This document shows positions 22,595 through 24,372 of a stretch of 64,000 nucleotides of DNA, one piece after another. A program made the position numbers and the translations under genes. The notes below the pieces were generated by a model. That model saw only the letters and a list, made by a program, of their open reading frames with translations. It was not told the origin of the DNA and searched no databases. Location of the stretch: the IMG/VR virus record IMGVR_UViG_2541047959_000009; one strand, 5' to 3'. Source of the stretch: a virus. Lineage: Duplodnaviria; Heunggongvirae; Uroviricota; Caudoviricetes. The first letter of the stretch is position 1; every line of letters begins with the position of its first letter.

Positions 22595-22599
22595 TTAAT

Positions 22600-22620
22600 A
22601 ACCACCTCTATGAGGTGGTT
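22600..22620. terminator. hairpin terminator between Q and convergent cargo gene
   Basis: 9-bp stem AACCACCTC/GAGGTGGTT with 3-nt loop. Confidence 0.6.
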
Positions 22621-22641
22621 AACAAGAATAAACCTAATTAA

Positions 22642-24051
22642 TTACTCATCTACTCTGATTTTTTGTTTTTTATTATTTTGAGTTAAGACATTTATGGTAA
22701 TAGATGTATACGGATGAAAGTCAGGCACTATACTTTTAACCTCTCCATTTTCAAGAAAATGATGTGCTATTGAAGGAAATAAATCAGGATCTACAGGATA
22801 TTTAGCATTAGGATTATGATACATATTTAAACCTTCTGCCCATGTTTCTGTAATATCGCCTTCTTTCACTTCAAAACTAAATGCTGCTGGATATAATGCC
22901 TCTGGGTCATGATCATGGCAGTAACCACTCCTAAATAATCTAAGGTCACTTCTTCCAAAACCAGCCAGTTTTCCCATCCGATTAAACTTCGATATAGTAC
23001 CACTATTAGAACTAAGGACGGCCGAAATATTTTCAGACTCATCCAAGAAGAAAAAGCCTGAAGGAATTTCCTTTTTCTCAAATTGATGCGATATAATTTT
23101 CTTAGTTGCTAAACTGTAACATCCATCTTCAGATTTAACATGCTCATAGCGAATACCATAAAGATACTGCCAAAGTGCACTATGGGACCAAATCATAGAG
23201 TTTGGTTCATGAAAATCAGCAATTGCGAAAATTAAAGGATTCCCCTTAACATGTTCTAGATCCCAGTATCGAGTTTTCTTTTTCAGTTTAGAATAGAGAG
23301 AACTTCCAAATTTAATCGGCATATAATTCTCTATTTTCTCTAGCAATTCTTCCTTACTTTTAGGTTCAGATAGCATTTCAGATGATTGATTAATATCATT
23401 CCCTGTTGGATTAACCGTTACAGCTTCAATGCAAATAGTATTACCATACTTACGTGCCACATAATCAGGGGCATTAAACTGCCTATCTAGCCAAAAGTGT
23501 TCCTCTCGTAAATATGCGAAAAGATATAACTCCCATAGCCGGGCATCAAAACCTGTTGTCTGAAACTGCTCTATAAAATTCCCGTCGACATCCTCAAAAT
23601 GATTCATCATTTCCTTGATTATCCCTGTTGCAGGCGACCAGTTCGCATATTTACCAAATAATGAAAAATGATGATGAAGTTTATCTGGTGTAACTATAGG
23701 TGTGAATAAATCCATTGCTTTATAAGTTTCATCACCTTGTGGAAATACTTTTACGTTTAATTTAGTATGCTTCCGCATTAATTTCTTTAGTTTTGCTCGT
23801 GCAGAATTCATTTCTGAAACACTAGTAAATAGGTCAATACATCTATATCTCCCACTTAAGTCTCTTGCTAAAACAATACCGCTATAATCTTCATCGATTT
23901 GATCCAATAATAGTGCCCCTAGCAGGAACTCTCTCGGACTACAGTACCACTCAAACTCATAGCCTAAAAGTTCAGTATTTGGCATTCTGGTCCAATCAAC
24001 AAAAGCATTAAACCTCTCTTTACTCATTTTTTTTATATCAAGAAAAGACAT
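22642..24051 (-). CDS. hypothetical 469-aa cargo protein at the Q/cos/A variable locus (candidate anti-phage defence; family not recognised)
   Basis: Long AT-rich ORF convergent with Q, at the position of P2 tin/old; no NTPase or nuclease motif recognised. Confidence 0.75.
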   Translation of the reverse strand: MSFLDIKKMSKERFNAFVDWTRMPNTELLGYEFEWYCSPREFLLGALLLDQIDEDYSGIVLARDLSGRYRCIDLFTSVSEMNSARAKLKKLMRKHTKLNVKVFPQGDETYKAMDLFTPIVTPDKLHHHFSLFGKYANWSPATGIIKEMMNHFEDVDGNFIEQFQTTGFDARLWELYLFAYLREEHFWLDRQFNAPDYVARKYGNTICIEAVTVNPTGNDINQSSEMLSEPKSKEELLEKIENYMPIKFGSSLYSKLKKKTRYWDLEHVKGNPLIFAIADFHEPNSMIWSHSALWQYLYGIRYEHVKSEDGCYSLATKKIISHQFEKKEIPSGFFFLDESENISAVLSSNSGTISKFNRMGKLAGFGRSDLRLFRSGYCHDHDPEALYPAAFSFEVKEGDITETWAEGLNMYHNPNAKYPVDPDLFPSIAHHFLENGEVKSIVPDFHPYTSITINVLTQNNKKQKIRVDE

Positions 24052-24140
24052 CTTTCTACCTCATCACGAAAAAATATTTTTTCCTAAAAAGACTTAAGTT
24101 AGCTTAATCTATTGATAAAAAAAAGCTAAGTAACGACCAA

Positions 24141-24175
24141 ATACGCGCGCTCGTATCCCCGCCACGCCTGCCCGC
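24141..24175. other. putative cos site (cohesive-end region)
   Basis: GC-rich TCCCCGCCACGCC resembling the complement of my recollection of the P2/186 cohesive-end sequence; position between the A-side accessory genes and Q. Confidence 0.3.
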
Positions 24176-24211
24176 TTTATGTAGTGGTTTTCATGCACCT
24201 GCATGATCTAC

Positions 24212-24238
24212 GCAAAAGCCCGCCAGTTCTGGCGGGCC
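24212..24238 (-). terminator. rho-independent terminator after DinI-like operon
   Basis: Stem GCCCGCCAG/TGGCGGGC followed on minus strand by TTTT. Confidence 0.5.
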
Positions 24239-24372
24239 TTAGCAAAAACGATCCTCAAACGATCATGCGATCTCATGCGGCATAGACATGCACTACAGAG
24301 CTAACGCCTCGCAAGGGCTCGTTGTTCAACCTTGCTGACGCCAGAAGCAAGTTCAGACGCCAGCAACGTTTC

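Follow-up and report, generated by a model that had tools for sequence, protein, structure and literature searches.

PD-T7-1 is one of the 21 anti-phage systems recovered by functional selection of E. coli fosmid libraries; it is a single gene of strain ECOR46 that was labelled "nuclease", was cloned with its native promoter and protects against T-even phages more strongly than against T7 (Vassallo et al. 2022, Nat Microbiol, PMC9519451). PD-T7-5, likewise a validated single-gene system, was also labelled 'nuclease' (Vassallo 2022, PMC9519451). The locus between gpA and gpQ is a defence hotspot of P2 in which hundreds of gene arrangements have been found (Vassallo et al. 2022, PMC9519451; Rousset et al. 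2022, PMC9122126). In K-12, the PD-T7-1 of NILS69 protected against a Teseptimavirus and made T7 plaques smaller. The cos-proximal defence hotspot of the P2 family is reportedly also a subject of Odegrip 2006. Here we analyse an open reading frame (ORF) coding for 469 amino acids (aa) on the minus strand at positions 22642–24051 of IMG/VR virus record IMGVR_UViG_2541047959_000009, a stretch of 64,000 nucleotides (nt) that is called the window below. The ORF lies next to the cos site of a prophage, and its product will be called the cargo protein. We are confident that it is a PD-T7-1-family single-protein defence gene, carried as exchangeable cargo in the gpA–gpQ hotspot of a 186/Fels-2-like P2-family prophage of E. 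coli.

The family assignment is carried by the defence-specific profiles of PADLOC. The cargo protein matches the PD-T7-1 profile (PDLC04073) practically over its full length, residues 7–457 aligning with positions 2–449 of 452 (E = 1.3e-196, 651.7 bits). Residues 113–436 match the PD-T7-5 profile (PDLC04110; E = 1.4e-56), and no other PADLOC profile was matched in the scan of the cargo protein. Residues 108–465 match PHROG 8571 (E = 5e-152), the function of which is listed as unknown. A segment resembling PD-(D/E)xK nucleases is present at about residues 170–220. The preliminary description of this locus had left the protein unassigned and without a motif that could be placed. That claim does not stand: the homology to a characterised system, PD-T7-1, is clear. 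The candidate single-gene anti-phage function that was also proposed there is the best reading. Scans of the cargo protein against Pfam and NCBIfam returned no family, which is why RefSeq labels it 'hypothetical protein', and even at E <= 5 the Pfam matches of 47 diverse homologues were single, scattered and due to chance. The family is large. The first search found more than 3700 homologous sequences, mostly from Proteobacteria, and at E <= 0.001 there are 1778 clusters at 50% identity.

The gene stands alone. In the window and in 8 further places it is flanked by cos and the DinI-like gene on one side and by the portal gene on the other, and the neighbours in these 8 places are without exception phage core genes. 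E. coli S88 has the same protein (WP_000008839.1, 100% identity), and the index of the assembly collection lists it in 2388 blocks; it occupies this same slot in 8 of the 8 places examined. Table S5A of Rousset et al. includes WP_000008839 with the arrangement "hypothetical + DinI + hypothetical" (PMC9122126). The gene is thus real but already explained: family and hotspot have both been described in print, and this very protein is catalogued.

Composition sets the gene apart from its surroundings. The guanine plus cytosine (GC) fraction of the ORF is 0.35, while the window as a whole has 0.51 and the phage genes on either side have about 0.55, so that the AT-rich 469-aa ORF of the preliminary description is confirmed in full. 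It starts with ATG, and a GAGG ribosome-binding site is found at 24059–24062, 7–10 nt before the start codon. The chromosomes of E. coli S88, MS7163 and further strains, most of them extra-intestinal, contain the segment at 100% identity. Another S88 gene, the 'Putative HEPN' that Rousset et al. cloned as pFR103, was considered and is absent from the window.

The genes around the ORF are those of a P2-family prophage of the 186/Fels-2 type of E. coli, in the order gpA-like gene, small ORF, DinI-like gene, cos (24150–24168), cargo gene, portal gene. The cargo gene therefore sits between gpA and the portal gene with cos adjacent. In P2 itself, the stretch from cosL to the end of Q is only about 170 bp long, and tin and old are found between gene A and cosR, where the mature genome has its right end. 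The cargo gene thus shares the gpA–gpQ interval with tin and old but is located across cos from them. The tin–old position suggested earlier is consequently right as to the hotspot and wrong as to the side, since the cargo is on the portal side (left end) and tin and old are on the gene A side.

Is the gene a part of the phage core? Of 5426 complete E. coli genomes, 1277 have the conserved flank (24144–24372) and 25 have the full segment with the cargo gene. In Escherichia phage vB_EcoM-813R9 the right flank is the same to 100% and the cargo slot holds a different gene, for a Hypoth_Ymh-domain protein, and a related prophage described below carries an extra gene beside cos. Content of the locus is thus variable. 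The subtype is not confined to E. coli: a P2-like prophage of Erwinia billingiae has a 74%-identical orthologue in the same slot and is collinear at 73% nucleotide identity from the cos flank through the gene into the portal gene. The gene is accessory cargo and not a core gene, and the synteny across P2-like prophages that the preliminary description proposed to compare bears out its view on this point.

The 19-nt cohesive-end site cos was located at 24150–24168 on the minus strand (24168 to 24150 reads GGCGTGGCGGGGATACGAG), about 100 bp upstream of the cargo ORF. The cos annotated in phage 186, likewise of 19 nt, is GGCGTGGCGGGGAAAGCAT; the two agree at 15 of the 19 positions, including all of the first 13. 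The adjoining sequence towards the DinI-like gene can be aligned with the right ends of both 186 and P2. The 19-mer of P2 cos was not found even at up to 3 mismatches. Judged from these alignments, the cos of the prophage is a 186-type variant and a real P2-family cos. The GC-rich motif at 24141–24175 had indeed been noticed for its resemblance to such a sequence.

The borders of the exchangeable DNA can be placed by comparison with relatives. On the cos side, homology with relatives bearing other cargo ends at 24144, six bases past the cohesive-end 19-mer, and vB_EcoM-813R9 is 100% identical from 24144 onward. A related E. coli prophage (L012; CP164873; 3799–4754) has an extra DUF4145 gene between 24297 and 24319, on the DinI side, in addition to a PD-T7-1 gene on the portal side of cos. 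There is therefore a cargo slot on each side of a conserved cos core, which measures about 154 bp (24144–24297). On the other side, homology of the portal gene with that of vB_EcoM-813R9 stops near 22506: the C-terminal ~30 residues differ in portals that are otherwise identical. The 3' end of the portal gene, its last ~30–38 codons (about 22480–22594), is AT-rich with a GC fraction of 0.2–0.3. By this comparison the 3' end of the portal gene is part of the variable cassette and the left cassette junction lies inside the gene, and exchange of the cargo would thus also swap the C-terminus of the portal protein.

A separate observation concerns the same slot. The gene-specific part of the published primer PD-T4-7-R (CTAGCGCGCGCTCGTATC) has 2 mismatches to the cos-adjacent sequence of vB_EcoM-813R9 (L005, 5997–6014). 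This suggests that PD-T4-7 may have been cloned from the same cos–portal slot of a similar prophage.

Structural prediction divides the cargo protein into three domains. The AlphaFold2 model, made from 50 homologues, has a mean predicted local distance difference test score (pLDDT) of 88.8 and a predicted template modelling score (pTM) of 0.89. The N-terminal accessory domain (aa 1–108; 23728–24051, minus strand) has a four-stranded antiparallel sheet packed against helices. This module of ~105 aa is absent from PD-T7-5 and PHROG 8571 and is C-terminal in P0185. Among P0185 and about 20 other homologues, some have the module at the C-terminus and others lack it, the core-only forms having ~345–370 aa. 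It is an optional, domain-permuted module of the family.

The central domain (aa ~120–300; 23152–23694, minus strand) is the core that resembles PD-(D/E)xK nucleases. In the model its elements follow in the order helix 168–183, strands 187–189, 197–201 and 204–213, helix 233–256 and strand 273–279. The first helix carries E174 and the second one K255; P195-D196 stand at the beginning of the second strand, and E209 is on the third. All of these residues are invariant in 47 sequences of 33–49% identity. In the same 47 sequences the position two residues after E209 is V, T or S and never the canonical lysine. Of the canonical catalytic motif, D on strand 2 and (D/E)-x-K on strand 3, the invariant D196 and E209 would thus be candidates for the acidic residues, the lysine at +2 is absent, and the invariant K255 is on the following helix. 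Foldseek gave a sole plausible match, to Hjc over the motif hairpin (39 columns, 33% identity), and a published, weak HHpred result places Hjc at 80% probability on residues 177–219. A profile search of the sequences in the Protein Data Bank (PDB) gave one chance match (E = 0.62). The C-terminal domain (aa 301–456; 22684–23151, minus strand) is rich in beta structure according to the model and the conservation, with K355, F356, R358, E402, W404 and N413 invariant, and no solved relative or specific fold match was identified for it. Invariance of E174, D196, E209 and K255, taken with the fold of the model, leads us to regard the cargo protein as a PD-(D/E)xK nuclease of a variant type in which the lysine is displaced, and for which we infer cleavage, substrate and trigger.

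Some of our results weigh against the confident reading given at the outset, and they concern mostly the question of which member of the family has been validated. E. coli has two subtypes, one of 469 aa in 25 and one of 449 aa in 201 of the 5426 genomes, and they are 33% identical over 466 aligned positions. The coordinates published for PD-T7-1 span 1351 nt (PMC9519451). Such a length is expected for the 449-aa subtype, whose ORF has 1350 nt, but not for the cargo gene with its 1410 nt. In addition, two phage genomes that carry the 449-aa gene have, 135 nt upstream of it, a site that the gene-specific part of the published cloning primer PD-T7-1-F matches with 2 mismatches, where by our estimate about 0.004 such matches would be expected by chance in the sequence searched; the window has no match to this primer. 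The reference accession RCQ85672.1 was looked for among the cluster members and was not found, and the subtype call rests on ORF length and primer. From the span and the primer, the validated ECOR46 protein is very probably of the 449-aa subtype. As the validated subtype is only 33% identical, we infer the anti-phage activity of the 469-aa subtype by homology. Furthermore, no sigma-70-like promoter was detected upstream of the cargo ORF by a consensus scan and a relaxed scan of 149 nt, and no published mutagenesis or biochemistry of PD-T7-1 was found. It should be noted that the cargo protein scores 652 bits with the PADLOC PD-T7-1 profile and the 449-aa phage-borne members about 520 bits.

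In three phage settings that are unrelated to each other, the gene of the 449-aa subtype likewise has no partner: a lambdoid phage, a Morganella phage where it is next to umuDC, and a Yersinia phage where it occupies the second P2 hotspot, the Z/fun position between tail-fibre assembly and sheath genes. Another homologue, 59% identical to the cargo protein, is found in a defence island (metagenome contigs L021–L023, P0009). It begins 3 nt after the gene of a 1455-aa methyltransferase-endonuclease of the MmeI/Eco57I type; the genes that come next code for a GHKL-type ATPase and a protein of 1335 aa. Members of the PD-T7-1 family may thus belong to a multi-gene defence operon in some genomes. 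With ~33% identity to the validated subtype, the 469-aa subtype may differ in phage range or trigger. That it does so, and that the family is a structurally new kind of nuclease with its displaced lysine, beta-rich domain and movable module of ~105 aa, is a speculation that we find rather unlikely.

How would the PD-T7-1-family cargo gene work? The lysogen would express it from its own AT-rich upstream region, with hairpins insulating both sides, and the cargo protein would protect the host, and hence the prophage, against other phages; the validated relatives act on T-even and T7-like phages. The effector is most likely the central domain acting as a variant metal-dependent PD-(D/E)xK nuclease in which K255 is the candidate replacement for the canonical lysine. 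The substrate that it cleaves would be nucleic acid, with phage DNA as the most plausible target. Binding of the substrate is probably the task of the beta-rich C-terminal domain with K355, R358, E402, W404 and N413. Since core-only PD-T7-5 is validated, the N-terminal domain should be dispensable in principle, and it is therefore probably a module for regulation, sensing or oligomerisation.

The same architecture could serve abortive infection. The nuclease would then be held inactive, perhaps by the N-terminal domain, and on sensing a phage product would degrade host and phage DNA or tRNA and kill or arrest the cell. We consider this possible, though the odds seem to lie somewhat against it: 7 of 11 putative DNase systems in the screen that yielded PD-T7-1 gave direct immunity, and core-only PD-T7-5 defends without the putative regulatory domain.

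The missing canonical lysine raises the question whether the PD-(D/E)xK-like fold is catalytically dead, in which case the protein would block phage nucleic acid or protein by binding. It is improbable that this is so. E174, D196, E209 and K255 are strictly invariant in the set of 33–49% identity, a pattern that is expected of a working metal-binding site, and variants of this fold with a displaced lysine are well known.

A moron with a role outside defence, for example one that benefits an extra-intestinal pathogenic E. coli (ExPEC) host after the subtype has drifted from defence, has little to recommend it. The cargo is present in ExPEC-type strains such as S88 and MS7163, the anti-phage activity of this subtype is putative, and some databases label the protein 'glycosaminoglycan attachment protein'. 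This label is uncurated, however; the slot otherwise holds defence genes, all family-invariant residues are kept, the Erwinia prophage has the same subtype in the same slot, and the 59% homologue is in a defence island. A novel exclusion function that is unrelated to any characterised system, for which the absence of a Pfam or NCBIfam family, the RefSeq label and the lack of relation to Tin and Old might speak, is ruled out for practical purposes by the full-length PD-T7-1 match (E = 1.3e-196) and by the relation to the 449-aa subtype (466 aligned positions, 33% identity), which the cloning primer flags as the validated one.

The exclusion proteins of P2 were compared with the cargo protein directly. 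OLD-family nucleases combine an N-terminal ABC-type ATPase carrying Walker A with a TOPRIM domain. There is no Walker A or P-loop in the cargo protein, as the preliminary description had correctly seen in judging it not Old-like, and direct comparison with P2 Old shows no similarity; membership of the OLD family was rejected on both grounds. For P2 Tin, BLASTP against the cargo protein gave a best E of 2.5, and identity with Tin was rejected as well.

We return to the PD-T7-1-family cassette and its transcription. The neighbour at 21557–22594 on the plus strand is the phage portal gene (Q/W homologue), by RefSeq annotation of the identical S88 sequence and by Pfam PF04860 in identical loci, and the cargo ORF is convergent with it, as had been stated for portal gene Q. 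Between the two genes there is a hairpin (22599–22621) that is terminator-like in both directions. Its stem TAACCACCTC/GAGGTGGTTA with a 3-nt loop has 10 bp, or 9 bp without the terminal T–A pair, in agreement with the 9-bp stem reported at first sight. With a centroid energy of −14.7 kcal/mol it folds better than every one of 200 shuffled sequences (z = −3.9). In position it is analogous to tQ of P2 and tW of 186. Upstream of the cargo gene, an AT-rich region of 92 nt that includes the GAGG (24052–24143, minus strand) is counted with the cargo cassette and reaches to the end of homology at 24144. Beyond cos, a GC-rich hairpin followed by TTTT was read from the sequence at 24218–24237 (minus strand), in a position analogous to terminator t95b of phage 186. 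It is followed in the conserved backbone by a DinI-like (Tum-like) gene at 24373–24678 (minus strand; Pfam DinI E = 1.3e-22 and RefSeq annotation), which is analogous to tum of phage 186. By this analogy the hairpin likely ends the DinI-like operon before cos and shields the cargo gene from upstream transcription. With hairpins on both of its sides, the cargo gene thus looks like an insulated cassette, which probably has its own weak or non-canonical promoter.

Several observations were made on other parts of the window. The gpA-like replication endonuclease gene is split: 24959–27399 (minus strand) holds a 695-aa ORF (25312–27399) and a following ORF, and RefSeq describes the gene as 'frameshifted' in S88. 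Most relatives with the same cargo have an intact gpA-like gene of 804 aa. This copy of the prophage may be replication-defective. A gene of 566 aa at 12076–13776 on the plus strand is AIPR/AbiU-like (Pfam AIPR E = 1.6e-25, PADLOC AbiU E = 1.7e-24). It lies antisense inside the tail/baseplate module, adjoins the gpV spike gene and is a second defence-type cargo of the prophage.

A defence cluster is found at 34070–39164, just past the prophage integrase (31082–32101). It comprises a protein with a restriction endonuclease domain of the DpnII/MboI type (34070–34858), PD-T4-3, which is a GIY-YIG protein (35450–36256, minus strand, E = 1e-135), and the type IV restriction enzyme GmrSD (37215–39164, E = 0). 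Downstream of this cluster, a second phage-like cluster extends over 41000–63600 with large ORFs that are mostly on the minus strand. The PD-T7-1, AbiU/AIPR, PD-T4-3 and GmrSD genes all lie within about 27 kb, and the window thus shows dense clustering of defence genes.

What has been gained is mainly a correction, in that an orphan of Pfam, NCBIfam and RefSeq is recognised at once by the defence-specific profiles of PADLOC. The cargo locus is a textbook case of the P2 cos-proximal defence hotspot. Residual value lies in the candidate catalytic residues E174, D196, E209 and K255 for PD-T7-1, in the N-terminal domain being optional and permutable, and in the two E. coli subtypes of 33% identity, probably one of which is the validated one.

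The cargo protein can be compared with several known systems. One group comprises the small PD-(D/E)xK nucleases, namely archaeal Hjc, XisH, the CdiA-CT toxins and VRR-NUC, together with Upx and Can2, which are defence nucleases. The cargo protein differs from this group in having V, T or S in place of the canonical lysine and an invariant lysine on the second helix, and its core is embedded in a three-domain protein of ~470 aa for which no solved relative was identified; no sequence-level relationship with the group was detected. P2 Old and Tin are, like the cargo, prophage-borne exclusion genes near cos and non-essential for the phage, but they lie on the gene A side of cos and not on the portal side, and there is no sequence similarity. 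PD-T7-5 and PHROG 8571 share with the cargo protein a common core of residues ~113–436/465 and differ from it by lacking the N-terminal accessory domain of ~105 aa. Closest is PD-T7-1. Its validated form differs from the cargo protein in being, very probably, 449 aa long, in its 33% identity and in being seen in other slots. The cargo protein shares with PD-T7-1 a full-length match to the model, a single gene of ~450–470 aa, occurrence in prophages and defence islands, and the same weak PD-(D/E)xK-like segment around residues 170–220.

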